Below, piece after piece: positions 5,963 through 54,524 of a DNA stretch of 64,000 nt. Each line of letters begins with the position of its first letter. Position 1 is the first letter of the stretch. The stretch covers positions 1,270 to 65,269 of the forward strand of contig CAKKRH010000032.1 in NCBI GenBank assembly GCA_919902675.1, written 5' to 3'. Under the pieces are notes generated by a model, which saw nothing but the letters and a program-made list of their open reading frames with translations, made no database searches and was not told where the DNA came from. The translations under genes and the position numbers were made by a program. Source of the DNA: Omnitrophica bacterium GWA2_41_15. Lineage in GTDB: Bacteria > Omnitrophota > Gorgyraeia > Gygaellales > UBA12090.

Positions 5963-6589
5963 TCATTTCAATTCAACAAAGTTCTTTAACAGCCTAAGTC
6001 CTAAGTTCTGGCTTTTTTCCGGATGGAATTGACAGGCAAAGAGGTTATCCTTGCGTATTGCCGAGGCAAACTCCAGGCCGTAATCCGTAACCGCGGCAAT
6101 GATATTTTTATCTTCAGGATCAGCGTAATAAGAATGACAAAAATAAAAAAAAGAGTTGTCTGGGATATTTTTTAATATGCCGCGTTCCTTTGTTTTTCCT
6201 TTCGCGTTTTGCCTTTTGACTTTTATTTGGTTCCAGCCCATATGGGGTACCTTGAGCCTATCCGGAAAACGCCGGACCGTTCCTTTAAACACGCCCAGGC
6301 CGCGGGCACTGCCGCCTTCTTCACTTCGCTCAAAAAGAAGCTGTAGTCCCAAACATATCCCCAAAAACGGTTTTTTAAAAATATTTTCGTGTATAGTTTT
6401 AATCAAGTTTAATCTTTTGAGTTCTCGCATCGCCTCTTTTATCGCCCCTACCCCGGGTAAAACAATCTTATCCGCTCCCCGGATTATTCCGGCATCAGAG
6501 CTCACCCTGACCTCATTAGCGCCGGCTGACTCCAGGGCTTTAGCCACACTCCTTAAATTCCCCATACCGTAATCAATGACCGCGATCAT
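5963..6589 (-). CDS. hisH: Imidazole glycerol phosphate synthase glutaminase subunit
   Basis: 208 aa: MIAVIDYGMGNLRSV...LPGVGA...GICLGLQLL...HMGWN...FHPEKS. Confidence 0.9.
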   Translation of the reverse strand: MIAVIDYGMGNLRSVAKALESAGANEVRVSSDAGIIRGADKIVLPGVGAIKEAMRELKRLNLIKTIHENIFKKPFLGICLGLQLLFERSEEGGSARGLGVFKGTVRRFPDRLKVPHMGWNQIKVKRQNAKGKTKERGILKNIPDNSFFYFCHSYYADPEDKNIIAAVTDYGLEFASAIRKDNLFACQFHPEKSQNLGLRLLKNFVELK

Positions 6590-11964: not shown

Positions 11965-13449
11965 CTATTCACTCTTAATCACAAAGAAACCCCGGACAGT
12001 GCGCACCAAACAATCGCCTTTGGCGGCCTGAATTACCTTTTTGTAGGTAATAATATTGTCAATATAAATCCGGTTAATTTCCAAAATCACATCTCCGGAG
12101 ACTATTCCTGCCTCTTCAGCCGGACTATCCGGCTGAACATCCACAACCGCTGCCCGGGCGTAATCGCCTAAGCGCGATTTCCCGGCTGAATCCGGAGTAA
12201 TCGCCTCAACCTTAATCCCTCTCCAATAATCTGACGACGTTTCGCGGGCGGCAGGTTTACCCGCCTCGTCAATATTTTCAGGCCGGCTGCCGATAACCGC
12301 GTTTAAAGATAAAGGTTTTTTGTCTCTGAGCATGTCCAGTTTAATTTTGTTTCCCGGCTCGCTGTTTCCCACTATTTTAAGCAGGACATTGGCATTATTT
12401 GTCTCTTTTGCGTCAAGCTTCAAGATGATATCGCCATTCTTTATTCCCGCCTTGGCGGCCGGACTGTCCTCTAAAACCTGAGAGACCAAAACCCCTTTTT
12501 TATCGGCCAAGCCAAAATAAGCGGCTAATTTATCGTCTAAATTCTGGATGCTGATTCCCAGCCACCCGTAAATAACCTTTTTCCCCTCAATAAGCCTCAA
12601 GACAATCCGCTTGGCGGAATTAGAAGGCACGGCAAAACCAACTCCCTGATATCCTCCGCTGGTAGAGAATATAGCCACATTTATTCCGACTATCTCGCCT
12701 TTTAGATTAACCAGCGGACCGCCGGAATTACCCGGATTTATCGCGGCATCGGTCTGGATCAGGTCGCCATAATCCCTGTCTGATGAAATCCTGCCTAAAG
12801 AGCGATGCAAAGCGCTGACCACGCCCGCGGTTACCGTGGGCTCGGGATTATGGATAGCAAAACCAAAAGGATTGCCTATGGCCACCACCCACTGCCCGAT
12901 CCTCAAGTTGTCAGAATCCCCTAATCTTACCGCGGGGAAATTACCGCCTTCAATCTTAATCACCGCTAAATCCGAGCGCTTGTCCACTCCCTTAATCTCA
13001 GCCTTAAATTCCCGGCCGTCAGGTAAAGTAACCGTGATTTTATCCGCTTCAGCCACCACGTGTTCATTGGTCAGGATATAACCTCGCGCGTCAATAATCA
13101 CCCCTGAGCCCAAACCCAGCTGTTTATATTCCCTCTGAGGAAGCTCACCGAAAAAATCTTCAAAAAATCTGCGGAAAAACTCATCTTCTAACTGACCTCC
13201 GTCTTGAGGACCGCCAAATTGATAGCGGCGCGCGGACGAAGCCCCAACCTTTTCCGTATGCTCAATGCTGATGGATACTACGGCCTTACCTACCGTCTCC
13301 GCCACCAGCTCCACCGCCTTCTCAAAGCTATCCGGATATCCCCCTTCTTGGGCATACGCGCTGTAAAACACGGGGCTCAAAATCCCACCCACAATCACAC
13401 CGGCAATCAAACCCGAAACGATAAGTAGATATCGTATTTTATTTCGCAT
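11965..13449 (-). CDS. htrA: HtrA/DegP-family periplasmic serine protease with two PDZ domains
   Basis: 494 aa with an N-terminal TM/signal, catalytic TNEHV..D..GNSGGPL, and two PDZ-like segments. Confidence 0.9.
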   Translation of the reverse strand: MRNKIRYLLIVSGLIAGVIVGGILSPVFYSAYAQEGGYPDSFEKAVELVAETVGKAVVSISIEHTEKVGASSARRYQFGGPQDGGQLEDEFFRRFFEDFFGELPQREYKQLGLGSGVIIDARGYILTNEHVVAEADKITVTLPDGREFKAEIKGVDKRSDLAVIKIEGGNFPAVRLGDSDNLRIGQWVVAIGNPFGFAIHNPEPTVTAGVVSALHRSLGRISSDRDYGDLIQTDAAINPGNSGGPLVNLKGEIVGINVAIFSTSGGYQGVGFAVPSNSAKRIVLRLIEGKKVIYGWLGISIQNLDDKLAAYFGLADKKGVLVSQVLEDSPAAKAGIKNGDIILKLDAKETNNANVLLKIVGNSEPGNKIKLDMLRDKKPLSLNAVIGSRPENIDEAGKPAARETSSDYWRGIKVEAITPDSAGKSRLGDYARAAVVDVQPDSPAEEAGIVSGDVILEINRIYIDNIITYKKVIQAAKGDCLVRTVRGFFVIKSE

Positions 13450-13515
13450 TTTTTGCTTCTGTTTTCAAAACCACCTCTTCACTCATAACTTATCACTTAT
13501 AACTTCTCCCCACAT

Positions 13516-14568
13516 CTATTCTTTAAGCTTAGCCGTAGCCTGCTTACGAACTTTATCTTCTAATTCATTAAGCATCTTAGGGCTGTTTTTGAGAAACTGG
13601 ATTGCCTGGTCTCTTCCCTGGCCTATTTTCTCGTTGTTGTAAGCAAACCAACTTCCGGACTTTTGCAAAATACCCATTTCCGAAGCGGTATCCACGATAC
13701 TTCCCGCCCGGGAAATACCTTCGGCAAAGAGAATTTCAAACTCCGCCTCCCTGAAAGGAGCGGCTACTTTATTTTTTACCACCTTCGCCTTAACCCGGTT
13801 ACCAATAATCGTTTCCCCGGATTTAATCTGTTCTTTCCTTCTTAAATCCAGGCGGACCGAAGAATAAAATTTCAAGGCCCTTCCTCCGGGAGTAGTTTCA
13901 GGATTACCAAACATAACCCCGATCTTTTCGCGCAGCTGATTAATAAAAATAATACAGGTCTTGGATTTACTGATAGCGCCGGTAAGCTTTCTTAAGGCCT
14001 GAGACATCAGCCTGGCCTGCAGGCCCATATGACTGTCTCCCATTTCCCCTTCAATCTCCGCCCGGGGGGTAAGGGCGGCTACTGAATCTATCACCACCAC
14101 ATCCACGGCATTGGAGCGCACCAGGGTCTCCGCGATCTCTAAAGCCTGTTCGCCGGTATCCGGTTGAGAGATAAGCAGCTCATCCAGGTTAACCCCAACC
14201 TTTTTGGCATAGGTAGAATCAAAGGCATGCTCGGCATCAATAAAAGCCGCCACCCCCTTAGTCTTCTGGACCTGGGCAATCACGCTTAAGGTAAGGGTGG
14301 TTTTACCGGATGATTCCGGGCCAAAAATCTCAACCACCCTTCCCCGGGGAAGCCCGCCTATACCCAAAGCCAAATCTAAAGAAAGCGCGCCTGTGGGGAT
14401 TGCCGCGACATCCACCTTTATATCGCTGGAAAGCTTCATAATTGAGCCCTTGCCAAACTGCTTTTCTATATGGGCCACGGCCAATTCTAGGGCCTTTTGA
14501 CGGTTAAGATCATCTTCTTTTTTAACTATTGGTGCTGTCTCCGCGACAGCCTTTTTATCCTGCGCCAT
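13516..14568 (-). CDS. recA: Recombinase RecA
   Basis: 350 aa: [37 protein letters not shown]. Confidence 0.97.
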
Positions 14569-14609
14569 AATAACGCCTCCTATTGTTAAATTTTTAAATG
14601 AAAAAGTTG

Positions 14610-14642
14610 AGGTTTAGGTTGAGACAAACTCAACCTAAACCT
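14610..14642. repeat. 14-bp perfect-stem hairpin (AGGTT words) within the predicted recA 5' UTR
   Basis: aggtttaggttgag (14610-14623) is the reverse complement of ctcaacctaaacct (14629-14642). It lies between the predicted recA promoter and the recA ATG. Confidence 0.8.
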
Positions 14643-14689
14643 TGACCTTAACCTTTATGATTAGTTTCCACTAAAAAAGTGTGGAAATT

Positions 14690-14718
14690 ATTATAACTTA
14701 GCAGACTGCTTAAGTCAA
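14690..14718 (-). promoter_or_regulatory. Predicted sigma70-type recA promoter (TTGACT-17 nt-TATAAT)
   Basis: On the minus strand, TTGACT (14718-14713) is followed by a 17-nt spacer taagcagtctgctaagt and TATAAT (14695-14690). This is about 120 nt upstream of the recA ATG. The spacer contains the palindrome AGCAG-N-CTGCT (14700-14710). Confidence 0.6.
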
Positions 14719-14727
14719 GCTTGACTT
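14712..14727. promoter_or_regulatory. Perfect 16-bp palindrome AAGTCAAGCTTGACTT forming back-to-back -35 boxes
   Basis: The sequence is self-complementary as read. It gives TTGACT on both strands, for recA on the minus strand and the GGDEF gene on the plus strand. Confidence 0.6.
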
Positions 14728-14749
14728 TTCCGGCGCTCTGTGTTAAATT
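14721..14749 (+). promoter_or_regulatory. Candidate promoter for the GAF-GGDEF gene (TTGACT-17 nt-TAAATT)
   Basis: TTGACT at 14721-14726, a 17-nt spacer, and TAAATT at 14744-14749. A hairpin gttgaaaaat/atttttcaac (14756-14778) follows in the 5' UTR. Confidence 0.4.
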
Positions 14750-14883
14750 GAAATTGTTGAAAAATCTTATTTTTCAACAATTTCATCCTGAGGAGGGACC
14801 TAAGTCCCGACGAAGGATCTCATACAGATATCTTTCAAGATAAGAGTTTTTAGGGATCTTATAACGGCCTCAAATTTCCTAAT

Positions 14884-16053
14884 ATGGATACGGACAAACC
14901 CAGGGATACCCAAGAGGAATTACAAAAGGTGCGCGGAGAGCTTTCCTTGCTTTATGAAATCTCCAATGCTATGCGCACTACCCTGAAATTAGATGAAATC
15001 CTCTATATTATCCTTACCGCGGTAACTGCCCATGTGGGCTTGGGCTTTAACCGGGCAATGCTTTTTTTAGTAAACGAAAAAGACGGTGTTTTAGAGGGAA
15101 AAATGGGTATCGGCCCGGATAGCGGCGAAGAGGCTAATCGCATCTGGACCTACCTAGAAAAGGAGAAAACAAATCTTGATAATTTAATCAGCAACTATAA
15201 AGTTTCGGGACATCTCGCTCACAGCCAATTTGACCAGATTGTGAAAGGCATCCGGCTTCCACTCAAAGAAGAAGAGGGCGGCATACTGGCAATGACCCTG
15301 CTTGACGGGATGCCCCTGCATATCACCCAGGAAACCATCCACACCCGTAAGCAAGACACCTTAATTAACATCCTCCGTCCAGAGGAATTCGTAACCGTTC
15401 CCCTCAAAGCCAAAGACAAGATTATCGGGGTCCTTTTCGCGGATAACCCCTATACCCATAAACCAATCACTAAAGACAATATCCGCATCCTGACTATGTT
15501 TGCCAACCAGGCCGGCCTGGCCATTGAAAATTCCAAGCTCTACGAACAAACCCTGATCAAAAGCCATACCGACTCCCTCACCTCGCTCTGGAATCACGGA
15601 TATTTTCAGTCCCGCCTGCAGGAAGAGATAAGCCTGGCTCAGAAAAATAAACAAAATTTAAGTATTATAATGGCTGATTTGGATAATTTTAAGGTCTACA
15701 ACGATACCTTGGGACACCAGGAAGGAGATCAGATACTTATTCAGATAGCCAGAATATTGAATGGCTCAGCGAGAAAACAAGATACGATTTACCGTTACGG
15801 AGGAGAAGAATTCGCGGTACTGCTACTTCAGACCACTAAACAGGAAGCCAGCGTTATTGCCGAGAAAATAAGGATATCTGTAGAGCAAAGCGATTTCCGC
15901 AGGCAAGAAATATTTCCCAACCGAAAACTTACCGTAAGCTTAGGAGTAGCCGCCTGCCCTGGAGACGGCGCGAGCAAAGATTCGCTTCTTGAATACGCCG
16001 ATAAAGCCCTCTACAGCGCTAAACACCAAGGCAAAAACCGCGTCTGCGGTTAA
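14884..16053 (+). CDS. GAF domain-containing diguanylate cyclase
   Basis: 389 aa with an N-terminal GAF-like region and a C-terminal GGDEF domain. It has an RKQD I-site five residues before the RYGGEEF active site. One of only two plus-strand genes. Confidence 0.88.
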   Translation: MDTDKPRDTQEELQKVRGELSLLYEISNAMRTTLKLDEILYIILTAVTAHVGLGFNRAMLFLVNEKDGVLEGKMGIGPDSGEEANRIWTYLEKEKTNLDNLISNYKVSGHLAHSQFDQIVKGIRLPLKEEEGGILAMTLLDGMPLHITQETIHTRKQDTLINILRPEEFVTVPLKAKDKIIGVLFADNPYTHKPITKDNIRILTMFANQAGLAIENSKLYEQTLIKSHTDSLTSLWNHGYFQSRLQEEISLAQKNKQNLSIIMADLDNFKVYNDTLGHQEGDQILIQIARILNGSARKQDTIYRYGGEEFAVLLLQTTKQEASVIAEKIRISVEQSDFRRQEIFPNRKLTVSLGVAACPGDGASKDSLLEYADKALYSAKHQGKNRVCG

Positions 16054-16103
16054 GACACAAAAAGCTCTTTTACCGCGTTATAGATTATTTTCTCGGGGAT
16101 ATT
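16050..16103. repeat. 54-bp direct repeat, left copy (duplicate of the aroB 3' end)
   Basis: ttaagacacaaaaagctcttttaccgcgttatagattattttctcggggatatt is identical to 18254-18307. It contains the GGDEF gene stop codon (16051-16053). Confidence 0.95.
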
Positions 16104-16228
16104 ATCAGCACAACCCAACACCCTTGTATCTGCGTATTATAAGCACTTGCCTTCGTCACCCCTGCGCTTCGCCCTGCCCGCCTACGGTGAGGTCTCGCCT
16201 TCGGCGGACGGGTTAACATAATACGACC

Positions 16229-16513
16229 TTAAACAAATTCAACCTTTAAATGCTTATTCAACGCCCGCGCCAGCTTTATTAATGTCCCTAAAGAATAACT
16301 TCTGTTGTGAATATCCTCTAACCGGGACACTGTTTGTTGGGTAGTGTGTAAGCGCTTAGCTAATTCCCGTTGAGTTAATCCTTCCTTTTGTCTAATCTTA
16401 GCGGTTTGAATAGCTAAAGAAGCGTAAGTCTCTTCTTCATCAAACGCTTTTTTAAATTCTGGGTTTTTCAGATCTTCCCTTAGCTTGTCTCTAAATTTTC
16501 TTAGGCCTCTCAT
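16229..16513 (-). CDS. XRE-family HTH antitoxin (HigA-like)
   Basis: 94 aa with HTH segment GLTQRELAKRLHTTQQTVSRLE. It overlaps the upstream toxin gene by 4 nt. Paralog at 63326-63619. Confidence 0.8.
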   Translation of the reverse strand: MRGLRKFRDKLREDLKNPEFKKAFDEEETYASLAIQTAKIRQKEGLTQRELAKRLHTTQQTVSRLEDIHNRSYSLGTLIKLARALNKHLKVEFV

Positions 16514-16869
16514 AACTCAATTTCACCCCCTTTATATCTTTGAAAAAAATCTCCCATTATTCGTTCTGCCCTTTCAATCTCTCCCGCGGGAACCTTATCG
16601 GTTTTTTTTAAAAAGCCGTGTGTGAGAATAATCTTCTTACCAAAGAAAAAATATAAAAACCGATAATGGTTTGAGCCAAAAACAACTCTAAGCTCCCGGA
16701 TCTTCCCCCTAACAACATCCGCGAATGGCCTGGTCAAATTCGGCCCTTCTTCCTCGAGTTTTTCTATCCACTTCTCTATCTTGGCGCGTATCTTAATGGG
16801 TAAATTATCTAAAAACTCGTCCGCGGGACAATTCCCTCTGCTATCTTCATAAGACAATACTTCATACAT
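16510..16869 (-). CDS. Gp49/HigB-like toxin (RelE/ParE superfamily)
   Basis: 119 aa: ...IRELRVVFGSNHYRFLYFFFGKKIILTHGFLKKTDKVPAGEIERA. The toxin-first gene order is typical of HigBA. Paralog at 63626-63988. Confidence 0.75.
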   Translation of the reverse strand: MYEVLSYEDSRGNCPADEFLDNLPIKIRAKIEKWIEKLEEEGPNLTRPFADVVRGKIRELRVVFGSNHYRFLYFFFGKKIILTHGFLKKTDKVPAGEIERAERIMGDFFQRYKGGEIEL

Positions 16870-16888
16870 ATATTAGTCCCTCATTTAT

Positions 16889-16917
16889 AATTTACACTAT
16901 TTTTAATGTATTGTCAA
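16889..16917 (-). promoter_or_regulatory. Predicted TA promoter (TTGACA-17 nt-TAAATT)
   Basis: On the minus strand, TTGACA (16917-16912) is followed by a 17-nt spacer and TAAATT (16894-16889). A GAGGGA RBS then precedes the toxin ATG at 16869. Confidence 0.6.
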
Positions 16918-17016
16918 GAAAATCTTTGAAATTATCTCGTTTTGTAATAAGCATGAATAGCGGCTTGGAGGAAATTATTTTGCTCTAAAGCATAAAGATT
17001 CTGCGTAATTTGGGCA

Positions 17017-18253: not shown

Positions 18254-18307
18254 TTAAGACACAAAAAGCTCTTTTACCGCGTTATAGATTATTTTCTCGG
18301 GGATATT
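18254..18307. repeat. 54-bp direct repeat, right copy (authentic aroB 3' end)
   Basis: Identical to 16050-16103. It encodes the last 17 codons plus the stop of aroB. Confidence 0.95.
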
Positions 18308-19345
18308 TTTAGAGATAACCGCCTTGCCTATTCCTTTAAGCAGAACAAAACGGTTTAATCTGCCGATAAACTTTTTATCCAGCCTGTAGGCCCGCAACAC
18401 ATCTTCTTCCCTGATTCCGCTTACCTCAAGGGGAAGCCCCAGACCGGCAACCAAAGCGGATATCCGCTGGCAAACTGACGCTGAAAGCAGGCCTAAATTC
18501 TCGCTCATTTGGGAAGCCGCCAACATGCCTAAGGCAATTGCCTCTCCGTGGTTATATCTGCTATAACCGCCTGCCGCCTCAATGGCGTGTCCGATAGTAT
18601 GTCCGAAATTTAAAATTGTCCTTAAACCCTTTTCTTCCTTTTCATCAAGCTCAACAATTTCAGCCTTGATTTTGGCGCACGCGTAGACTAAATGCTCCAG
18701 AGTCTGCCTGTCCCTGGAAAATACCGAGTGATAATTCTGCTCCAGAAAATTAAATAATCCCTCATCCTTGATTGCCGCGTACTTGATGGCCTCGGATAAA
18801 CCGGCGCGCGTCTGTCTCTTGTCTAAGGTTTCCAACACGCTTAAGTCGCAGAAAACCAGCTTGGGCTGATAAAACGTCCCGACCAGATTTTTGGCAATGC
18901 GCAAATCAATGGCCGTTTTTCCTCCAATGCTTGAGTCTATCTGGGCCAGAAGAGTGGTGGGAACCTGGACCAAGGGCACGCCGCGCTTGTATATGCTGGC
19001 AATAAAACCGGCCAAATCCCCAATCACCCCTCCCCCTAAAGCAAGAACAGTTATCTTTTTCTGTTTCGCGTAAAAAGCCAGGTTTTCGGCAATCCTTGCC
19101 GCGTTATTGATTGATTTGGCCTTTTCGCTGTCTATGGTGAGATAAAATTTGGTCGAAAATCCTCCTTGCTTAAGGCTCTGATTTAATTTTTTGGCATAGT
19201 ATTTTTGAACGCGATTATTGGTTATAATAAATATTTCCCGCGGCAGGTGTAATGACTTAAGATACCGCGGCAGAAACCTAAAAATATCATAACCGATAAC
19301 TATAGAATAGCTTTCTTTCCCCAAATTAACCGTTATCTTTTTCAT
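18254..19345 (-). CDS. aroB: 3-dehydroquinate synthase
   Basis: 363 aa: GGGVIGDLAGF, PTTLLAQIDSSIGGKT, NFGHTIGHAIE. Confidence 0.92.
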   Translation of the reverse strand: MKKITVNLGKESYSIVIGYDIFRFLPRYLKSLHLPREIFIITNNRVQKYYAKKLNQSLKQGGFSTKFYLTIDSEKAKSINNAARIAENLAFYAKQKKITVLALGGGVIGDLAGFIASIYKRGVPLVQVPTTLLAQIDSSIGGKTAIDLRIAKNLVGTFYQPKLVFCDLSVLETLDKRQTRAGLSEAIKYAAIKDEGLFNFLEQNYHSVFSRDRQTLEHLVYACAKIKAEIVELDEKEEKGLRTILNFGHTIGHAIEAAGGYSRYNHGEAIALGMLAASQMSENLGLLSASVCQRISALVAGLGLPLEVSGIREEDVLRAYRLDKKFIGRLNRFVLLKGIGKAVISKNIPEKIIYNAVKELFVS

Positions 19346-20515: not shown

Positions 20516-21178
20516 TTATAATCTCCTTATTTGACAATCGGGATAACTGTTTTTCATTTTAACAAGATTAATCTGGGCGTCTTCCCTGGCGTTAAACCTT
20601 CCCACGCAAATCACGGTATATTTTCCTTTAGTTAAGCTAAAAGCGGTATAACCTTTACTCCTTAATTTTGATAATTCTTTGCTTACATTTTTGCTCTTAG
20701 AAATACTGGCCACCTGGATAGTGAAATTTTTCTGGAGAAGTTCTTTACTATCCGGCTTGGCCTGAAGATTAACTTTTTCTCTGCTTTTGTCCAGCGAAAC
20801 AGACTTTCTTGTGGTGAGCGTAGTCGGACCACCTATCCCTTGAGGAAAGGTTGTATTTTTATTTACCAACAGGATCGGCCCTTGTTTGGAGGGAAACTGG
20901 CCAGCTTCCACGGTAAGAGATGTCGGCTCACCCTTAGGCAAAAAAGCCGGCTCCATCCCCATCGGCGTAATCCCGGCGAGGTGCTTCTTTCCTTTTTCAA
21001 CCCCGAAAGAAAATGAAACCAAAGAAACAAAAATAAATGCCACGAAGGTATATACGAACTTTTGATAACCGCGTATTTTATTAAGATGTAAAGGATTTCT
21101 CCCTGAGACGCCTTGACTTCCGGAGGCCTCCTCATCCGTCTTAAACATTTCCAATTGCTCAGAATTATTTTTCTGCAT
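20516..21178 (-). CDS. SPOR domain membrane protein
   Basis: 220 aa with one TM. The C-terminus FTIQVASISKSKNVSKELSKLRSKGYTAFSL.KGKYTVICVGRF..REDAQ is SPOR-like. Confidence 0.7.
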   Translation of the reverse strand: MQKNNSEQLEMFKTDEEASGSQGVSGRNPLHLNKIRGYQKFVYTFVAFIFVSLVSFSFGVEKGKKHLAGITPMGMEPAFLPKGEPTSLTVEAGQFPSKQGPILLVNKNTTFPQGIGGPTTLTTRKSVSLDKSREKVNLQAKPDSKELLQKNFTIQVASISKSKNVSKELSKLRSKGYTAFSLTKGKYTVICVGRFNAREDAQINLVKMKNSYPDCQIRRL

Positions 21179-21302
21179 ATTCCCCCTCTATATCAATATT
21201 AAAAAAACAAATACCACAAATGAATACCAAAATTAGCAGGCTTATATCCACTCCGCTTGCCGTTTACAGTTACTGGTCTTTTTATTTAATTTCGCGCTTT
21301 AT

Positions 21303-21460
21303 CCCGGAATTTGCAATAGTAATGGCATTCGCCGCCAAATAAGGGCGCATCTTCGTCAGAAAAAAGCGCTTACATACTAAAAGTATGCGCGCACTTTTTT
21401 CTGCCAAATCTGCATCCTTCTTTGGCGTCTCGGTGCCGCATTCCTATTGCAAAATCCGGG
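21303..21460. repeat. 158-bp hairpin element, copy 1
   Basis: About 98% identical to 33687-33844. The arms cccggaatttgcaatag... and ...ctattgcaaaatccggg fold into a long imperfect stem-loop around ttacatactaaaagtatg. Confidence 0.9.
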
Positions 21461-21513
21461 ATTAATCTGTAATTTTAGTTTTTGATATTTAATTTATTAT
21501 TATACCTCCAAAC

Positions 21514-22575
21514 TTATCCACTCCGCAAGTATTTTCTTAAATCAAACTTCTTTATCGCCCTTAAAAAAGCGTCAACCACGTTGGGGTCAAATTGCGTTCC
21601 GGATTTATGTTTTATCTCTTTGAGGGCATCACTTATTCCCACCCTTTCCCGATAAGGCCTGCCGTAGACTATGGCCTCAAAGGCATCAGCCACGGCCATA
21701 ATCCTTGCCCCTAAAGGAATCTGCCCCTTTTTAAGCCTGGAAGGATATCCTGTGCCGTTAAATTTTTCATGATGATGCAGAATTATCGGTATAGCCGGCC
21801 TAATGGCTTCAAGGTGCCTGAGAATTTTTACCCCTCTTACCGGATGGCCTCTGATAATAGAAAGCTCTTTCTCGGTAAGCTGGCTGGATTTGGTGAGAAT
21901 CTCTATAGGTATATCCACTTTTCCGGCGTCGTGAAGCAGGCTGGCGAATTTCAGGCTCTGAATTCCTTTCTCATCCAGATGCATCTCCCTTCCGATAGCG
22001 CACACCAAACGGCTGAAATACGGGCTATGGGTATAGGCGCAGGGCACCCGGGTGTCAAATAAAGTTACCAGGGATTTAATGCTGCCCAGAATTATCTTCT
22101 GTTGCTCTTCATAAAGCTGCAAGTTGCGGATACCGATGACTGCCTGCTCGCCTAAAGTCATTAATATTTCCTGGTCATAGGAATCAAACGGCTTATTATC
22201 TTTTCTATTATCCAAAATAATCATTCCTATTAAATCGTCGGCTATCAAAGGAACGGCTAATTTAAAACCGCTGCGGCAGGCCTGAGACTTACGGATGACC
22301 CGCCTCTCCAGCGAATTAAATACCTTCGAGTTTTTACTGACTACGCATTTGGCGTTGTGGCGGATAGCGCATTTCAGGATAACCTTCTTGTTGGCGGGAT
22401 CAAGAATAACAATCGCGCAATTACGCGCGGATAATGTCTGGCAGGTAAGCCTGGCTAAACGCAAAATCAGATTTTTCAGATCATACGTCGAATTTATCAG
22501 GCGGTATACCGTATGAATCGTGGAAAGTGCCGCTTTATACTTTTTCGTAAGGATCAAATAATTTTTTATACTCAT
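21514..22575 (-). CDS. GAF domain-containing HD-GYP c-di-GMP phosphodiesterase
   Basis: 353 aa: HDAGKV...HHHEKFNGTGYP. Confidence 0.85.
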   Translation of the reverse strand: MSIKNYLILTKKYKAALSTIHTVYRLINSTYDLKNLILRLARLTCQTLSARNCAIVILDPANKKVILKCAIRHNAKCVVSKNSKVFNSLERRVIRKSQACRSGFKLAVPLIADDLIGMIILDNRKDNKPFDSYDQEILMTLGEQAVIGIRNLQLYEEQQKIILGSIKSLVTLFDTRVPCAYTHSPYFSRLVCAIGREMHLDEKGIQSLKFASLLHDAGKVDIPIEILTKSSQLTEKELSIIRGHPVRGVKILRHLEAIRPAIPIILHHHEKFNGTGYPSRLKKGQIPLGARIMAVADAFEAIVYGRPYRERVGISDALKEIKHKSGTQFDPNVVDAFLRAIKKFDLRKYLRSG

Positions 22576-24173: not shown

Positions 24174-24328
24174 AATAACCAATAACCAAACATTTAGTAC
24201 TTGGTTATTGGTTATTATTTGGTTATTGGAAATTGGAAATTGGTGATTGGTTATTGGTTATTGGTTATTGGTTATTGGTTATTGGTTATTGGTTATTATT
24301 TGGTTATTGGAAATTGGTGATTGGTGAT
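24174..24328. repeat. 16-bp hairpin plus about 19-unit heptamer array (TGGTTAT/TGGAAAT/TGGTGAT)
   Basis: aataaccaataaccaa (24174-24189) pairs with ttggttattggttatt (24201-24216). The tandem 7-mers run 24202-24328, with seven perfect TGGTTAT units at 24248-24296. Confidence 0.9.
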
Positions 24329-24339
24329 TGTAATTCATT

Positions 24340-27203: not shown

Positions 27204-27274
27204 AGCGGGTGAGCGGAATCGAACCGCCATAAACAGCTTGGGAAGCTGCCATTCTACCACTGAATTACACCCGC
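27204..27274 (-). tRNA. tRNA-Gly (anticodon CCC)
   Basis: The minus strand reads GCGGGTGTAATTCAGTGGTAGAATGGCAGCTTCCCAAGCTGTTTATGGCGGTTCGATTCCGCTCACCCGCT. It folds as a cloverleaf with 7-bp acceptor, D arm ATTC/GAAT, anticodon loop TTCCCAA and T loop TTCGATT. CCA is not encoded. Confidence 0.9.
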
Positions 27275-28588: not shown

Positions 28589-29241
28589 ATATTTATCATC
28601 TCGCTCTTTAAACCATCTATTGCTTTTTCAATATTTCCGGCTTCACAAATTGCCCGCACCACGGCGATATTTTTGGCTCCTGATCCTCTTACTAATCCTA
28701 TGTTATTTTTATCAATTCCCCCGATAGCCGTAACCGCGAGGCTAACCCTGGAAAGAACATTTTTCAATAGTTGTAAACCCACGGCCTGATAATCCGGCTT
28801 TGTGGGAGTTGAGAAAATCGGGCCCACGCTGATATAATCAACCTTTTCATTCTCGGCCGCGACTGCCTGCGCGAGGCTATGGCAGGATTTCCCGATGATT
28901 TTTCCCGGACCAAGCAATCCGCGGACAGCTTCTACCGGTAGATCATCCTGTCCGATATGCAGACCGTCGGCATTAACCAGCTTAGCGATATCCAAGCGGT
29001 CATTAATGATGAATAAAGCCTTTCCTTTTGTAGTCTTCCTGATCAAAATGGCATTCCGATAAAATCCCCGGACATCATCGGTTTTATCCCTAAGTTGAAT
29101 TATTTTAACTCCTGCCCGGACGCAGCTTTCGGCTATATTAATGAGCGATCTTTTTGTGCCGGCGGCGCGGTTTACACTGAGCAAGGTCGAAGTGTCGATT
29201 ACCGCGTATATTCCTAATTCTCTTATCTGAATCTTTTTCAA
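28567..29241 (-). CDS. thiE: Thiamine-phosphate synthase (catalytic domain)
   Basis: 224 aa: LGIYAVID...IIQLRDK...NDRLDIA...GLHIGQDD...ISVGPIFSTPTK. The listed start is TTG and lies inside the upstream ORF. Confidence 0.85.
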   Translation of the reverse strand: MKKIQIRELGIYAVIDTSTLLSVNRAAGTKRSLINIAESCVRAGVKIIQLRDKTDDVRGFYRNAILIRKTTKGKALFIINDRLDIAKLVNADGLHIGQDDLPVEAVRGLLGPGKIIGKSCHSLAQAVAAENEKVDYISVGPIFSTPTKPDYQAVGLQLLKNVLSRVSLAVTAIGGIDKNNIGLVRGSGAKNIAVVRAICEAGNIEKAIDGLKSEMININLTPNL

Positions 29242-29662
29242 TCTGATATAACCGGTAACGGATATCTTTAAAGCCCGCGGATATCTTTTTATCCCGCCCC
29301 TTCCCTACGTTGGATAAGGGGCGAGATTTATTTTCTAGCTTGGAAAATTCCTCTAAAACTCTGGCCGATTCTTTGGCCCTCTGAATATTCGCGAAGAATA
29401 TATCCTGAAAATTACGCCTCTTTAACTCTTCTTTAATTGAAGGTTTGCCTACATCTTTAAGGCTGTCGCGGGAATCTAAGAGCCGGACATCTTTAATCTT
29501 CCATTTCCCGCTCAAGCCCGCCACATTATGGCGCAGATTTTTAAAACGCGAAGTTAAATTCTTATCTAAAACTACAAAGCGGGTTATTTCCTCGCAAACC
29601 CGTAAACCCTCTAAAATCCGGTTCAAGTTGGCATCAATAATCCGTAATATACCCTTATCCAT
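29138..29662 (-). CDS. ThiE-associated N-terminal domain ORF (probably the 5' part of a split thiE)
   Basis: MDKGILRIIDANLNRILEGLRVCEEITRF...FKDIRYRLYQIEK matches, from memory, the N-terminal extension of long ThiE proteins. It overlaps thiE by 104 nt in another frame, with the shift at the T5/A5 run 29234-29238. Confidence 0.55.
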   Translation of the reverse strand: MDKGILRIIDANLNRILEGLRVCEEITRFVVLDKNLTSRFKNLRHNVAGLSGKWKIKDVRLLDSRDSLKDVGKPSIKEELKRRNFQDIFFANIQRAKESARVLEEFSKLENKSRPLSNVGKGRDKKISAGFKDIRYRLYQIEKDSDKRIRNIRGNRHFDLAQCKPRRRHKKIAH

Positions 29663-29716
29663 AGGAGGCGTCTAATTCGCCCCGCCATATCTCTCGCGCG
29701 GTAATACCACCTAATG

Positions 29717-31959: not shown

Positions 31960-32072
31960 TTTTTAATTACTCCTTTTTAAATTTATTTAGTCTATGAAAT
32001 AGCTTGTGCTGCTCAAACCTAACTCAATAAACTCAATGAACTCTATAAACTCAATAAACTCTATAGACTGAG
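31960..32072. repeat. Intergenic array of ACTCAATAA/ACTCTATAA 9-mers
   Basis: ctcaataaactcaatgaactctataaactcaataaactctatagac. The same word family occurs in 35736-35813. Confidence 0.7.
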
Positions 32073-32672
32073 TTATCTCCCGTAACCGTAAAACGGGATT
32101 GCCGGCTCCTTAGGCTCGGAATCGCTTTTCTTCTTTTCTTCCCCAGAAACAATCTTAGCCACGTGTATCTTTACCACAATCGGCTCGTCAATTCCCCTCA
32201 GGATTTCGCGGATTTTGTTTTTGACCAATTCCTGCAGACGCTCGGTAAGCTCAGGAATGCTGGTTTCCGAACGCAGGTCAAGCCGAAGGTTAACCGTAAA
32301 GCCTTTTTTACCTACCACCACATCCGGCCTTAAACTTTTAACCTCGGGGACCTGTAAAGCTATTCTCTTGATTAAATCTTCAAGGGCGGCCAAAGCAATG
32401 CTCACCTCGCCGCTAGGAGTAGTAAAAGCGATATTTTTTTCTCTCTGCATCTTACCGATGACGCTCTGGGTAAAAGAAACGCTGATTAGAATTATCAAAG
32501 CGCTGATTAAGCTTAAAATCAAAGCCGAATTGGGATTTCTGCTGATTTCAGTAAAGATATTAAAAACCATAAGCGGAGTAACAATATTAAAAGCCAGGCC
32601 AAGCAAGCCTAAGGCAAAGAATATAAAAAAAACCATGTTAAATACAAGTCCAAATAAAGTAAATGTCCTCAT
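32073..32672 (-). CDS. Membrane protein, possibly AmaP-like anchor for Asp23
   Basis: 199 aa with two or three N-terminal TM segments and a soluble C-terminal domain. It lies in the same gene string as an Asp23-family gene. The name is an inference only. Confidence 0.35.
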   Translation of the reverse strand: MRTFTLFGLVFNMVFFIFFALGLLGLAFNIVTPLMVFNIFTEISRNPNSALILSLISALIILISVSFTQSVIGKMQREKNIAFTTPSGEVSIALAALEDLIKRIALQVPEVKSLRPDVVVGKKGFTVNLRLDLRSETSIPELTERLQELVKNKIREILRGIDEPIVVKIHVAKIVSGEEKKKSDSEPKEPAIPFYGYGR

Positions 32673-33319: not shown

Positions 33320-33673
33320 TCATGCCTTCTCAATCGCCTGAATACTTATCCTGATATCTCTGGGAGTTTTATCAATCATCTTCTCAAGGGCCTGCCTGAT
33401 TTTTACCTCCGTGTTTTCAGCCATCTCGGATATGTTACACCCATACTTAATTGTCAAGGGGACGGTGAGGATTATTTCATCATTTTTACTGAACTCTACC
33501 TTTATCGCGCTTCTGAGGCTCTTTATGCCCAATAGCTCTATAATACTAAAATCTTTTCTCCCGCCGACTCGCTTTACCCCCTCTATTTCCAAGGCTGCTA
33601 TCTCGGCGATAGAAGCGATAACATCTTTATGGATTTTTACCGTGCCCACTTCCAGTTTTGAGTTTTTCTCCAT
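33320..33673 (-). CDS. Asp23/Gls24-family (alkaline shock) protein
   Basis: Start trimmed to MEKNSKLEVGTVKIHKDVIASIAEIAALEIEGV. The longer ORF-track start runs into the 158-bp repeat. Confidence 0.75.
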   Translation of the reverse strand: MEKNSKLEVGTVKIHKDVIASIAEIAALEIEGVKRVGGRKDFSIIELLGIKSLRSAIKVEFSKNDEIILTVPLTIKYGCNISEMAENTEVKIRQALEKMIDKTPRDIRISIQAIEKA

Positions 33674-33686
33674 CGAGAATATTAAA

Positions 33687-33844
33687 CCCGGAATTTGCAA
33701 TAGTAATGGCATTCGCCGCCAAATAAGGGCGCATCTTCGTCAGAAAAAAGCGCTTACATACTAAAAGTATGCGCGCACTTTTTTCTGCCAAATCTACACC
33801 CTTCTTTGGCGTCTCGGTGCCGCATTCCTATTGCAAACTCCGGG
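33687..33844. repeat. 158-bp hairpin element, copy 2
   Basis: It differs from 21303-21460 at about 3 positions and abuts the accC stop codon (33845-33847). Confidence 0.9.
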
Positions 33845-35203
33845 TTAAACCTTCGCGCCCTCAACCTTAAAGGTATCATTTATAAAATTGGTGGAAAACT
33901 CACCTTTAACAAAGAAAGGATTCTTCAAGACCTCCCGGTGAAAATCTATGGTAGTCTTTATCGGCTCAATAATAAATTCATCCAGGGCCCGGCGCATAAT
34001 CTGGATAGCTTCCTTTCTGTCTTTTCCCCGGACAATCAGCTTGGCCACCAGGGAATCATAATACTGGCTTATGGTGTACCCGGAATACACATGGCTGTCT
34101 ACCCTCACGCCCGGACCACCCGGAATGTTCAACATCTCTATCTTTCCCGGTGAAGGCATGAAATTGTTCTGATAATCCTCGGCATTAATGCGGCATTCTA
34201 TGGAAGAACCGTTCAGTCTGATATCATCCTGCTGAAGTTTTAACTTCTCGCCCCTGGCGATTTTGATCTGCTCTTTAACTATGTCTATCCCGGTAACCAT
34301 CTCGGTAACCGGATGCTCAACCTGAATCCTGGTATTCATTTCCATAAAATAGAAATTTTTCTTATCATCAAGCAAGAACTCAATAGTTCCGGCGCTCACA
34401 TATTTTACCTCTTTAGCCGCCCGTATCGCCGTTTCACCGAGGCGTTTACGCAATTTACTGTCCACAGCCGGCGAAGGAGATTCCTCTAAGAGCTTTTGAT
34501 GGCGCCTCTGGATTGAACAATCCCTTTCCCCTAAATGAAGAATCCGGCCGTATTTATCGCTCAGAATCTGGATCTCTATATGCCGCGGCCTCTCAATATA
34601 TTTCTCAATATACACATTGGAATTGCCGAAATTCGCCTCGGCCTCGGCCTGGGCGGTCATTAACCCTGAAGCCAAACTGATGTCGTTATGGCAGACCCGC
34701 ATACCTTTTCCGCCGCCTCCTGAGGCAGCCTTAATGATAACCGGATAGCTTATGCGCTTGGCTACTTTTATCGCTTCATCCTTGTCCTTTATGGCGGATA
34801 GGCTTCCGGGAACTATGGGTATGCCGCATTTACGCATGGTTTCGCGGGCATGCATCTTATCGCCCATAAGGCGGATATTTTCCGGGGTCGGCCCGATAAA
34901 GGTTATCCGGCAAGATTCGCAGATTTCGGCAAAATGGGGATTCTCAGACAAAAAACCGTAACCCGGATGTATGGCATCCACGTCGGTTATCTCGGCGGCT
35001 GAAATGATGGCGGGAATATTAAGATAGCTGTTGGCTGAGACTGCCGGCCCGATGCACACCGCTTCATCAGCCATGCGCACATGCAAAGAATCCCGATCGG
35101 CCTGAGAATACACGGCGACAGTGCGTATACCCAGCTCTTTACAGGCCCGGATAACACGCAAAGCAATCTCTCCGCGGTTGGCTATAAGTATTTTGGAAAA
35201 CAA
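33845..35203 (-). CDS. accC: Biotin carboxylase
   Basis: 452 aa: [20 protein letters not shown]...ATP-grasp...[14 protein letters not shown]. Confidence 0.95.
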
Positions 35204-35735: not shown

Positions 35736-35813
35736 CCCGCACCTTGATTAGTTCGTTGAGTCTTTTGAGTTTAAGAACTCAATAAACTCAAGCAACTCAA
35801 CAAACTCTATAAA
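35736..35813. repeat. Intergenic hairpin of ACTCAA words
   Basis: gttgagtcttttgagttt ... aaactcaagcaactcaac. Confidence 0.7.
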
Positions 35814-36377
35814 CTAATTAACCCGCTCCACATAGGCGGCGGTCCTGGTATCCACCTTAATTTTATCCCCGATATTGATAAATAAAGGAACTAAAATCGT
35901 GGCACCGGTTTCAACCTTTGCCGGCTTGTTCCCGCCTTTAGCCGTATCCCCTTTTATTCCGGGCTCGGTTTCCACGATTGCCAGCTCAATAAAATTAGGC
36001 ATTACAATATTTAAAACCTGATTCTTGTAAAAGAATCCTAATACCTCCAGATTATCCTTAAGAAACCTGGAATTCTCTCCCAGGACATCGAATGAGATTG
36101 CCAACTGGTCATAATTCTCCTGGTCCATAAAATGATACATCTCGCCTGAGGCATAAAGATACTGCAGTTTTCTCTGCTCCACAAAAGCTTCTTCTACCGT
36201 ATCCTGGCCCCTGAAGGTGCGCTCCAGCAAGCCTCCGGTGCGCATATTCTTTAGCCGGGTGCGCACAAAAGCCGAGCCCTTGGCCGGCTTGACATGCTCG
36301 GTCTCCGTGATCTGAAAAACCTGGCCGTCCATAAGAATAGTTACCCCAACCTTAAATTGATTTATCGAGAACGCCAC
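35814..36377 (-). CDS. efp: Elongation factor P
   Basis: 187 aa: ...[19 protein letters not shown]... Confidence 0.93.
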
Positions 36378-39941: not shown

Positions 39942-40026
39942 TTATCTCATCTCCTTTTGCCTAATCATATCACCTATGATTAGAACTGTCAAACACCTTT
40001 TTTAAACCGCAAAGGCACAAAAATGA

Positions 40027-40135
40027 TTTAAACCGCTAAAACGCAAAATGGTGCTTAATGAACCCAATTAATCAAAAAAACAAAAACTGAAAAACGAAAA
40101 AAGCACTTTTTTTTGCTTTTGAAGTTTTTCAGTTT
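40027..40135. repeat. About 105-bp A-rich repeat element, copy 1
   Basis: tttaaaccgctaaaacgcaaaatggtgcttaatgaac..attaatcaaaaaaacaaaaactgaaaaac...ttttgcttttgaagtttttcagttt is about 75-80% identical by eye to 56124-56226. It contains a hairpin aaaaactgaaaaac/gtttttcagttt. Confidence 0.75.
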
Positions 40136-49804: not shown

Positions 49805-50554
49805 TCATTTGCGCCTCCCACTTTCTTTTGCTTTTGCCGGCTTACTTTGCGTTTTTTGGCTTTGGCTATGGATGCGGCTATTTGGTTGCCCACCATCGCC
49901 CTCTGGCTTATGGCTGCGGCTATTGGAAGCCGCACCATCGCCCTCTGGCTTATCGGAGGCAAAACCACCGCCCTCTGGCTTATGAGCTAAGGTTATGCGC
50001 GCTAACTTGCTGAGATCCTCTTCAGAAAGCACCTTCTTTAAGTCCAACAGCATAATCAGGCGCTCATCCAAGGTGAGCACTCCGCTGATATAGGCGCGGT
50101 CAATTTTGGTAATCAGATGGGGCGTGGCCTTTATCCCTGTGCGGGGAATCCTTAAGACCTCAGTAACCTCATCTACCAAAACGCCGTAGAGGTTCCCCTC
50201 CTGTCCGGTAATAACGATATGCTTACTTTCCACTGGCTTTTTTACCGGCAGAAAGAAACGCTCTTTGAGGTCAATGACAATAATGATTTCGCCCCTGATA
50301 TTAGTTACCCCTTTGATGAAATTAGGCGAATCCGGTATGGGTGTAACCGCTCCGACACGGACAATCTCTCGGACTTCATTAATATCTACGCCAAAGGACT
50401 CGTCTTCTAAACTAAAGACGACTAATTGGATGAGCTCTGCCTCCGGGGTGATGGGTTTGTGGCTTTGGCTAAAGGAAGCCAAACCACGGCCTTCTGGCCT
50501 GTGCCTTTCCTGAGCGGCTTGGATATTGCTGGTATCTTTAATTTCAGTCGGCAT
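49805..50554 (-). CDS. cheW: CheW coupling protein with repeat-derived N- and C-terminal extensions
   Basis: 249 aa with core LVVFSLEDESFGVDINEVREI...PNFIKGVTNIRGEII. The N-terminal extension contains HRPEGRGLASFSQSHKP. The C-terminal tail has HKPEGGG/DKPEGDG/HKPEGDG repeats. Confidence 0.85.
   Translation of the reverse strand: MPTEIKDTSNIQAAQERHRPEGRGLASFSQSHKPITPEAELIQLVVFSLEDESFGVDINEVREIVRVGAVTPIPDSPNFIKGVTNIRGEIIIVIDLKERFFLPVKKPVESKHIVITGQEGNLYGVLVDEVTEVLRIPRTGIKATPHLITKIDRAYISGVLTLDERLIMLLDLKKVLSEEDLSKLARITLAHKPEGGGFASDKPEGDGAASNSRSHKPEGDGGQPNSRIHSQSQKTQSKPAKAKESGRRK
50477..50501. repeat. 25-nt element inside cheW, identical to the one in the kinase gene
   Basis: agccaaaccacggccttctggcctg is identical to 42192-42216. 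Confidence 0.9.
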
Positions 50555-53500: not shown

Positions 53501-54524
53501 GCACCTCTCCGGCAGCCTCGATGGTAATCTTTTGCGCCAGGTCTCCCTTGGCAACTGCGGTAGTAACTAAAGCAATGTTGCGCACCTGTGCAGTAAGGTT
53601 AGCTGCCATAGCATTAACCCGGTCAGTAAGGTCCTTCCATGTCCCGGCTACGCCCGGCACTGCTGCCTGTCCGCCGAGTTTTCCTTCCGTGCCTACTTCC
53701 TTGGCCACGCGGGTAACCTCTGCGCCAAAAAGAGTAAGATTATCTACCATTTTATTGATTGTATTCTTTAGCTCCAGAATTTCACCTTTCGCCTCAACCG
53801 TAATCTTCTGCGCCAGATCTCCGTTAGCAACTGCGGTAGTAACCTGAGCGATGTTACGTACCTGACTGGTTAAGTTTGCTGCCATAGCATTAACGTTATC
53901 TGTAAGGTCCTTCCAAAGACCGGCTACTCTTTCTACCTTTGCCTGGCCGCCTAATTTTCCTTCTGTGCCTACCTCTTTGGCAATACGGGTAACTTCTGCG
54001 CCAAAAGTATTTAGTGAATCCACCATAGCATTAATGGTATTTTTAAGTTCAAGTATCTCGCCTCTTGCTTCCACGGTAATCTTCTGAGATAAATCTCCTT
54101 TGGCTACTGCAGTAGTAACCTGAGCGATATTACGCACCTGAGCGGTAAGGTTTGAAGCCATGGCATTGACGTTGTCAGTAAGATCCTTCCATGTCCCGGC
54201 CACACCCTGAACTGCTGCCTGGCCGCCGAGTTTACCTTCCGTGCCTACTTCTTTGGCCACGCGGGTAACCTCACCGCTAAAAGCTGTTAAGAGATCAACC
54301 ATACTGTTATAGGAATCCGCTAATTCGCCAAAGATATCTTCTCTTCCTGATTTTAACTTTTTAGTGAGATCGCCTTTTCTCACAGCTTCTAAGGCCTCTA
54401 ATAAATCTCTTAACTGTTTTTCTGACCCCTCGCTAAAGCCCTCTTCTCTTTCCAATGTTGCAACATCAGCCTCTGATTCGCCAAATAAAGCCTTCTTTGC
54501 CGCTTGTCTAATTGGCTTTGCCAT
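50556..54524 (-). CDS. Soluble methyl-accepting chemotaxis protein with poly-HAMP array
   Basis: 1322 aa with no hydrophobic TM segment. It has an N-terminal HAMP, ten tandem 92-aa units and a C-terminal MCP signalling domain ([24 protein letters not shown]). Confidence 0.9.
51525..54284. repeat. Ten tandem 276-bp (92-codon) units encoding paired HAMP domains
   Basis: The unit is [84 protein letters not shown]. Units 1-9 are highly similar and unit 10 is diverged. Confidence 0.9.
52327..52943. repeat. Perfect period-276 tandem duplication (2.2 units, 100% identity)
   Basis: 52327-52667 is identical to 52603-52943 base for base. The identical shadow ORFs 52428-52634 and 52704-52910 in the track confirm the 276-nt offset. 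Confidence 0.95.

Follow-up and report, generated by a model that had tools for sequence, protein, structure and literature searches.

Why should a palindrome of 158 bp occur twice, almost unchanged, within a short stretch of a bacterial genome? This question is raised by two loci, 21303-21460 (copy A) and 33687-33844 (copy B), in a 64,000-nucleotide stretch of Omnitrophica bacterium GWA2_41_15 (assembly GCA_919902675.1, contig CAKKRH010000032.1; hereafter the window, to whose whole length all coordinates refer unless another locus is named). A first-pass annotation of the window had described the element as either resembling a miniature inverted-repeat transposable element (MITE) or representing a structured RNA. 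The analysis reported here strongly favours the first option: the element is very probably a MITE, i.e., a non-coding, non-autonomous element of 158 bp bearing the 17-bp terminal inverted repeats (TIRs) of the IS1380 family of insertion sequences (ISs). The conserved ends, 5-bp target-site duplications, a transposase-bearing parent IS and empty sites in relatives indicate that the repetition comes from transposition. Thus, the MITE half of the earlier description is upheld by the IS1380 ends, duplications and empty sites; the structured RNA half finds no support in comparison with Rfam, promoter scans or the orientation of the copies. Loci in other genomes and metagenomes are referred to by L numbers.

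Sequence and borders of the two copies

The two copies align without gaps over 158 bp, with three differences (two in the right arm, G/A and T/C, and one, A/C, in the right terminal repeat), in agreement with the roughly three reported in the first pass. In both of them the terminal repeats are 17 bp long, with CCCGGAATTTGCAATAG on the left and its reverse complement on the right, and one mismatch between the arms. Matches to CCCGGAATTTGCAATAG with up to three mismatches occur four times in the window, compared with 0.35 expected by chance. The features of the two copies are as follows:

21303..21460, no strand: MITE copy A, a whole-length imperfect palindrome (family profile E=9e-36; fold z about -10)
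21303..21319, plus strand: left TIR of copy A, CCCGGAATTTGCAATAG, matching 16 of 17 bases of the complete IS ends in L171 and L172
21444..21460, minus strand: right TIR of copy A (minus-strand sequence CCCGGATTTTGCAATAG), which the complete IS of L171, L172 and L173 shares without a mismatch
21298..21302, no strand: TTTAT, left flank of copy A, which fits WTNAW and is unlike the right flank
21461..21465, no strand: ATTAA, right flank of copy A, with 2 of its 5 bases unlike those of the left pentamer (duplication not intact)
33687..33844, no strand: MITE copy B, whose site is empty in relatives L114-L123
33687..33703, plus strand: left TIR of copy B (arm search)
33828..33844, minus strand: right TIR of copy B (CCCGGAGTTTGCAATAG on the minus strand; arm search)
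33682..33686, no strand: left target-site duplication of copy B, TTAAA on the plus strand (TTTAA as read along the genes), of which the empty site of relatives has a single copy
33845..33849, no strand: right target-site duplication of copy B, of which 33845-33847, the first three bases, form the accC stop codon (TAA, minus strand)

A search of the window with the family profile (nhmmer) revealed no third copy. No coding capacity was found in the element; the sole open reading frame (ORF) touching copy B is a mechanical extension of the neighbouring Asp23-family gene.

In a pairwise alignment, the identity between copies A and B drops to background right outside CCCGG...CCGGG. The first-pass annotation had stated that membership of a larger segmental duplication would speak against a mobile element, and this possibility fails, since the similarity ends at the element borders. 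Chance or segmental duplication is thereby rejected as a source of the pair, given also that more than 60 unrelated loci carry the element. Together with this explanation, that of an intrinsic transcription terminator is considered extremely improbable. Terminator function would account for a stable hairpin downstream of genes, and the sense strand of copy B continues with UUUAAUAUU; on the other hand, copy A is followed by AUAAAGCG, which has no U tract, and terminator scans gave small internal matches at the level of shuffled sequence, with a scanner that cannot score an imperfect stem of 70 bp, so that a weak effect at copy B is conceivable.

Empty and occupied sites in close relatives

Close relatives of the window provide natural views of the same sites with and without the element. 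In the window and in two 100%-identical contigs from Hainich groundwater (L111 and L112), the region following the biotin carboxylase gene accC reads ...GCGAAGGTTTAA / 158 bp / TTTAA / TATTCTCGATGGAG, for which the left context is also given as ...AAGGTTTAA / MITE / TTTAA / TATTCTCGATGGAG. In relatives L114-L123, whose accC is 98% identical, the site is empty and reads ...AAGATTTAATACCGCCAATGGAG, with the layout ...GCAAAGATTTAATACCGCCAATGGAG, i.e., the accC stop, 8 nt and the Asp23 ATG. The pentamer TTTAA that holds the accC stop is single in the empty site and doubled around the element, which is the signature of transposition; and as the duplicated pentamer contains the stop codon, the insertion left accC intact. 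A second pair of sites was identified in L178 and L177, which share an identical accC protein. The element is present in L178 between the stop of a Memo-family gene and a Trm112p-family gene (...TATATAG / ATTAT / MITE / ATTAT / ACAGGAGGG) and absent from L177 (...TATATAG / ATTAT / ACAGGAGGG).

In addition, L148, which is 90% identical to positions 28644-29675 of the window, bears a copy with the same sequence as copy A; the corresponding site of the window, near 29680, holds no element (TTAGA vs TTAAA). This case is suggestive, its available upstream flank being only 13 nt long. The element is also missing from the spacer between the HD-GYP and SPOR genes, where copy A lies, in relatives with a 93-95% identical HD-GYP protein. 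Overall, at least four distinct insertion sites were found in one syntenic stretch of about 20 kb among closely related strains, which, together with the empty/occupied pairs, indicates that the element has been recently active in this groundwater Omnitrophota lineage. The recent mobility proposed in the first pass is hence corroborated by duplicated target sites, by the exact empty sites of near relatives and by the existence of dozens of further copies, and the survey of copy number and insertion polymorphism suggested there as a check yielded many loci and two clean occupied/empty pairs.

One of the two Hainich contigs, L112 (ENA ERZ1286166 contig_28), has a near-genome length of 2.155 Mb and encodes an accC protein identical to that of the window, with the same insertion of copy B. 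Its genes are often split in comparison with those of L111, which suggests frameshift errors of a long-read assembly.

Target-site duplications

Further evidence for transposition comes from the flanks of the whole family. After orthologous loci had been collapsed, perfect 5-bp direct repeats were observed around 40 of 59 independent copies, and repeats with one mismatch around 13 more. The perfect pentamers comprise TTTAA/TTAAA (24 copies), TTCAA/TTGAA (6), ATAAT/ATTAT (6), ATAAA/TTTAT (3) and TAAAA (1). Position by position, the counts are T33/A7, T39/A1, any base, A40 and A32/T8, giving a symmetric target consensus of TTNAA or, more loosely, WTNAW. Copy B has TTAAA on both sides.

A probable parent insertion sequence

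Clustering of the ORFs located inside the repeats across all loci yielded one recurrent protein, encoded on the short contigs L005 and L072, which are further cases of an IS with matching ends. The L005 protein scored 262 bits (E=6e-78) against the NCBIfam model NF033539 'IS1380 family transposase' (cut-off 180), and matched Pfam DDE_Tnp_1_4 (PF13701) at 2.7e-46, with 158 bits vs a cut-off of 34.7. Protein P0246 is named 'IS1380 family transposase' by NCBI. Homologs of the L005 transposase at E<=1e-100 number 1519; the majority are on contigs of about 1.45-2 kb, the size that collapsed IS copies would give.

A complete IS of 1438 bp encoding a 436-aa transposase was found at 2394-3831 of L171, an Omnitrophica metagenome-assembled genome (MAG; GCA_018894435.1), and the same IS is carried by L172 and L173. 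Its ends in L171 are perfect CCCGGATTTTGCAATAG / CTATTGCAAAATCCGGG repeats with TTTAA at the left flank, and the 17-bp terminal repeats of the MITE (CCCGGAWTTTGCAATAG) are the ends of these 1438-bp ISs in Omnitrophota MAGs. Beyond this phylum, the Aliarcobacter cibarius plasmid pACIB contains an annotated IS1380-family element whose transposase is 46% identical and which ends in the same CTATTGCAAAATCCGGG; this element interrupts a DMT transporter gene and is flanked by duplicated ATAAA. The transposase of ISEcp1 is 28% identical to that of Omnitrophota. One candidate parent, L023, was rejected, being merely a 23-bp solo end beside an ordinary gene. As a separate observation, two loci (L174 73-1338 and L175 18-1283) lack the left end of the IS1380-family element and carry a transposase gene of another family (DDE_5/DDE_Tnp_1) directly upstream, an arrangement which suggests IS-into-IS insertion or truncation.

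In the ISfinder description, IS1380-family elements have ends that begin with CC and generate direct repeats of 4-5 bp. The parent shows a DDE transposase passing the family model, CCCGG... ends and 5-bp duplications. By the MITE criteria as applied to MITEPye1 (PMC11578231, citing Delihas 2011), the element is small, lacks a transposase and possesses TIRs, IS-like ends and target-site duplications (in copy B and the family, not in copy A); presence/absence polymorphism comes in addition.

The same data bear on a different type of mobility, i.e., a REP/BIME-like or IS200/IS605-type palindrome moved by a tyrosine (Y1/RAYT) transposase. Such an origin would suit a palindromic, intergenic element, and the ends of some relatives fold on themselves (CCCGGATTTTGC-AATA-GCAAAATCCG). 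However, elements of this type insert without duplication, by a fixed tetra- or pentanucleotide, whereas variable 5-bp duplications are present at 40 of the 59 copies here, and the reading was rejected because the matching full-length element encodes a DDE transposase of the IS1380 family. It retains almost no probability.

Distribution and relatives of the family

The occurrence of the terminal sequence was examined by scanning one genome per species (596 Gb) with CCCGGANTTTGCAATAG. At least 110 loci were detected, some of the single matches being due to chance, since 596 Gb should contain a pattern of 16 bases a few hundred times. About 30 of the listed loci contain two such repeats in inverted orientation, 91-389 bp apart, and these pairs belong to Omnitrophota, Elusimicrobia, Campylobacterota, Bacteroidota, Fibrobacterota and Clostridia bins. 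When metagenomes were scanned for the two arms at a distance of 108-138 bp, 43 further elements of 156-161 bp were added. The 59 independent copies collected come from Omnitrophota, Elusimicrobia and other phyla.

The nearest relatives of the window copies (94-100% identical) are L067, L090, L128, L145, L148, L152 and L167, which were found in Omnitrophota bins and groundwater metagenomes; copies that match copy A at 100% identity are present at other loci of L148 and L167. The accC and HD-GYP proteins of the window are themselves 100% identical (rounded) to proteins of NCBI 'Candidatus Omnitrophota' MAGs and of Hainich groundwater contigs. A syntenic region about 92% identical to positions 12722-16920 of the window was found in L010 (UBA12090).

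Other forms of the element were also observed. One subfamily has only the terminal sequence in common, with an end that folds on itself (CCCGGATTTTGC-AATA-GCAAAATCCG...). It is present at 3148-3240 of L010 (corresponding to 16054-16222 of the window) as well as in L003, L075, L087, L098, L055 and L094; in UBA12090 it fills a spacer whose window counterpart consists of unrelated sequence. An apparent pair of 334 bp in L010 was discarded, its second arm being a chance match with three mismatches inside a gene; L010 has a solo end of this other subfamily. Minimal derivatives of 26-39 bp, with little beyond the two terminal repeats, occur in L008 (minus strand, about 6167-6192), L046 (5901-5928), L002 (6687-6725) and L095 (from 4451), and that of L008 is flanked by duplicated TTTAA. 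These derivatives look like products of internal deletion of the palindrome.

Hairpin structure, covariation and the RNA alternative

Each copy folds as one long, imperfect hairpin, with a stability far above that of shuffled sequences. The fold z-scores and the arm search agree with the stem-loop and terminal arms recognised in the first pass, which had also named the lack of a folding advantage over shuffles as a result that would speak against it; with z of about -10 to -14, this does not hold. The minimum free energies (MFE) are as follows:

Copy A, plus strand, folded as RNA: MFE -71.7 kcal/mol, z -9.9
Copy A, minus strand, folded as RNA: MFE -83.1 kcal/mol, z -10.3
Copy B, minus strand, folded as RNA: MFE -91.3 kcal/mol, z -14.5
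Copy A, plus strand, folded as DNA: MFE -39.8 kcal/mol, z -7.6
Copy A, minus strand, folded as DNA: MFE -51.6 kcal/mol, z -9.4

The window copies contain 4-6 G:U pairs on the minus strand vs 1-2 on the plus strand, and all three differences between A and B keep or improve minus-strand pairing. To place these features in the family, strand preference and covariation were analysed in 47 members of 156-161 bp, oriented by sequence alignment. The strand matching the minus strand of the window is the better folder in 47 of the 47, by 2-22 kcal/mol. Compensatory double changes occur at 23 of 39 consensus pairs, and double changes at paired positions separate even the close relatives L045 and L129. 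Paired cells amount to 96.9%, compared with 82.7% in column shuffles (none of 500 reaching the observed value) and at most 54% with slid partners. The helix of the terminal repeats (16 pairs) is essentially invariant; every interior helix covaries, and the interior primary sequence varies freely while the helices persist. An invariant terminal helix with an interior free to vary fits recognition by a transposase. The length range remains narrow across phyla (156-161 bp). An excess of G:U over A:C is clear in the subfamily of the window and absent in several Elusimicrobia subfamilies.

Very stable folding, one consistently better strand and strong covariation are also what would be expected of a structured RNA, either cis-regulatory or a small RNA gene, whose hairpin is selected as RNA and whose repetition reflects function. 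Moreover, the better-folding strand is the operon sense strand in both window copies, the strand on which the A/B differences preserve pairing. Several results argue against this reading. Under Rfam gathering thresholds, the whole window gave a single match, a tRNA at 27204-27274, and the element itself, searched at E up to 10, matched two miRNA models only (E 0.09-0.17, far below thresholds); the comparison with Rfam proposed in the first pass thus returned no family for the element. No promoter-like sites were found in or beside the copies, in scans that were uninformative. With gene strands assigned by a codon log-odds caller validated on the window, the sense strand is the better folder in 15 of 25 independent co-directional insertions and the antisense strand in the other 10 (p=0.42), and no association with local GC skew could be found (17:11, p=0.34). 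Insertion in both orientations, the lack of an Rfam match and the lack of a promoter therefore leave the transcribed RNA unsupported, and the repetition is traced to transposition by the duplications, the empty sites and the transposase-bearing parent.

The absence of an orientation bias relative to genes or GC skew further implies that the element inherits its strand asymmetry and does not owe it to host transcription. The asymmetric arm mismatches reported in the first pass are accordingly real, as shown by the G:U counts; their use as a sign of a transcribed RNA fails on the 15:10 orientation, and G:U counts favour the better strand in some subfamilies only. As for covariation, compensatory change in a DNA palindrome can come from arm-to-arm template-switch correction, known as quasipalindrome mutagenesis in E. 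coli. The covariation of this palindrome could stem from such correction, which requires no selection, so the covariance analysis advocated in the first pass did reveal a strong signal for which a non-RNA explanation is available. Taken together, a structured RNA is very unlikely.

A related explanation accepts the MITE and assigns a function to its whole-length hairpin, in the service of either the element or the host. On the element side, extrusion of a cruciform or hairpin would join the ends of a very short element for an IS1380/piggyBac-type transposase. On the host side, the hairpin, once in an operon transcript, would be cut by RNase III or block exonucleases, i.e., act as a portable processing or stability module; such roles have been reported for other bacterial MITEs. 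This proposal accommodates the maintenance of interior helices by compensatory change while sequence drifts, even between L045 and L129, the tightly kept length across phyla of an element shorter than the DNA persistence length, the strand asymmetry throughout the family and the frequent placement in operons beside stop codons. Conversely, the lack of orientation bias argues against a function in host transcripts, and duplications are likewise present around the shorter derivatives (26-39 bp) and around variants of 91-389 bp, so the full hairpin is not obligatory for insertion. A functional hairpin of either kind is considered rather unlikely, and it is doubtful that the whole-length hairpin is a selected strand-specific structure instead of a by-product.

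Several observations weigh against the identification of the element as an IS1380-derived MITE. Maintenance of a whole-length hairpin exceeds what transposase binding alone requires. No homolog of the IS1380 transposase was found within the 64-kb window, and the interior of the MITE showed no similarity to the subterminal sequence of the recovered full-length ISs. For copy A, the flanking pentamers TTTAT and ATTAA each fit the target consensus and do not match each other, and its insertion is not reconstructable; the relatives' HD-GYP/SPOR spacer has diverged too far for a base-exact empty site to be recognised.

Genomic context and proposed mechanism

All four genes flanking the two copies are on the minus strand:

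33845..35203, minus strand: accC (biotin carboxylase), upstream of copy B (translation; homologs named acetyl-CoA carboxylase biotin carboxylase subunit; Pfam families in L111)
33320..33674, minus strand: Asp23-family gene, downstream of copy B (117 aa and PF03780 in the gene calls of L111 and L112)
21514..22575, minus strand: GAF/HD-GYP-type phosphohydrolase gene, upstream of copy A (Pfam HD_5, HD and GAF in L124)
20516..21178, minus strand: SPOR-domain gene, downstream of copy A (PF05036 in orthologs of L124-L127)

Copy B lies 0 nt from the accC stop codon, with the Asp23-family ATG (33674) 12 nt further downstream; copy A lies 53 nt past the stop of the HD-GYP gene and 124 nt ahead of the SPOR-domain gene. 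These coordinates agree with the placement given in the first pass, i.e., after the stop of a minus-strand gene (HD-GYP or accC) and before the next gene on the same strand. Placement within 0-15 nt of gene ends is frequent in the family.

With regard to the Asp23-family gene, the start of a mechanically called ORF (33320-33712) is an ATG within copy B, which extends the gene by 13 in-frame codons (33675-33712). Gene callers on identical contigs start the gene at 33674, and the start at 33712 is an artefact due to the element.

In the proposed mechanism, the 436-aa DDE transposase of a full-length relative, located in the same genome or elsewhere in the community, would bind the 17-bp ends and move the MITE in trans. 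Insertion would occur into AT-rich TTNAA (WTNAW) pentamers, which would be duplicated in the process. TTNAA targets contain TAA and gene junctions are AT-rich, which would explain why copies are often found at or beside stop codons in operons; likewise, the abundance of TAA-containing targets at gene junctions would account for the position of both window copies just downstream of genes. Copy B probably landed at the accC stop and would have been tolerated because the duplication regenerates the stop codon. The insertion would have stretched the accC-asp23 spacer from 8 to 171 nt, and the operon transcript would have gained a hairpin of about 70 bp located 12 nt ahead of the downstream ATG. 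Between co-directional genes, the element would necessarily be co-transcribed as such a hairpin, which is expected to affect mRNA processing or stability, or coupling to the downstream gene.

These results have several implications. They link a conspicuous repeat to a named mechanism in the uncultivated phylum Omnitrophota, where mobile elements have barely been described, and the natural before/after insertion sites point to an IS1380-type transposase active in groundwater populations. The element marks strain-level variation in Omnitrophota genomes. Such elements also have practical consequences, as they break assemblies, create false ORF starts (such as that at 33712) and may pass for structured RNAs when screens rely on covariation. 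The spread of one terminal sequence across phyla, combined with a well-maintained and strand-asymmetric hairpin, may be of use to researchers of mobile elements. If the hairpin were functional, it would provide a compact model for mobilising very short elements or for rewiring operon expression.

Other repeats in the window

Besides the MITE, several other types of repeats were observed. A 46-nt hairpin repeat (TTTGTGGCTTTGGCTAAAGGAAGCCAAACCACGGCCTTCTGGCCTG) has five copies in the window, within 42171-42216, 49865-49982 and 50456-50501. A 43-nt copy of it (93% identical) is nested in the MITE of L090 (4100-4142), which makes that MITE 203 bp long, and this repeat may itself be mobile.

Short tandem arrays are found in many intergenic spacers, including 7-mers (TTGGTTA/TTGGAAA), 9-mers (AACTCAATA), CTTAACCT-type units and GCTGATAGCTGA units, at 24194-24330; 32012-32087; 35758-35824; 2819, 11266, 14629 and 32739; and 1547-1585, 10392 and 42898. 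Related arrays are present in the spacers of relatives, and they appear to be a recurrent trait of the gene junctions of this genome. Nine tandem copies of a 276-nt unit (68-77% identity) occupy 51700-54210 and presumably belong to the gene of a repeat-domain protein. A 59-nt repeat that is 97% identical (16050-16108 and 18254-18312) apparently lies at the 3' ends of two genes, one copy beginning at the stop of a GGDEF-type gene and the other forming the end of ORF 18254-19345. Finally, a 92-nt direct repeat with 86% identity (40004-40095 and 56101-56192) is rich in AAACCGCAAAA motifs and has partial copies at 39998, 55971 and 59719.

Comparison with known systems

Within the IS1380 family, which includes ISEcp1, ISPme1 and IS1247, the ends of the element are those of full-length members. 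It differs from them in being a geneless passenger of 158 bp with an interior unrelated to the subterminal sequence of the recovered ISs. In the literature searched, which was incomplete, neither an IS1380-derived MITE nor a MITE of Omnitrophota is described, and IS1380 and MITEs are treated separately; a MITE family tied to IS1380 therefore appears undescribed so far.

The element shares with other bacterial MITEs its small size, TIRs, direct repeats, lack of a transposase, IS-like ends, intergenic location and a long stem-loop at the RNA level. It departs from them in its parent, which belongs to IS1380 rather than to IS1182, IS630 or IS5, as well as in its whole-length palindrome, unusually strong covariation and presence in several phyla. 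The closest parallels in form are Correia/NEMIS elements of Neisseria and ERIC/IRU elements of enterobacteria, which are 100-160 bp long, have long inverted repeats and lie in operons, where they are co-transcribed as hairpins. These hairpins have been reported to be cut by RNase III or to alter mRNA stability. By analogy, a transcript effect of the Correia/ERIC type on accC-asp23 would be likely: copy B could introduce a site for RNase III, or translational coupling could be changed. No sequence relation to the element exists, however, and Correia elements duplicate TA.

REP/BIME sequences associated with RAYT are likewise short intergenic palindromes with many copies. They differ from the element on three points, as REP units are 20-40 bp long, produce no target duplication and depend on Y1 transposases.

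A wider resemblance concerns piggyBac, which inserts at TTAA and has CCC...GGG ends. The MITE family has a TT-N-AA target and CCCGG...CCGGG ends; its duplication, however, spans 5 bp with a free central base instead of the 4-bp TTAA. IS1380 transposases have been used as the prokaryotic outgroup of piggyBac (PMC10813416). The likeness between the MITE family and piggyBac is one of resemblance only, and serves as a lead.

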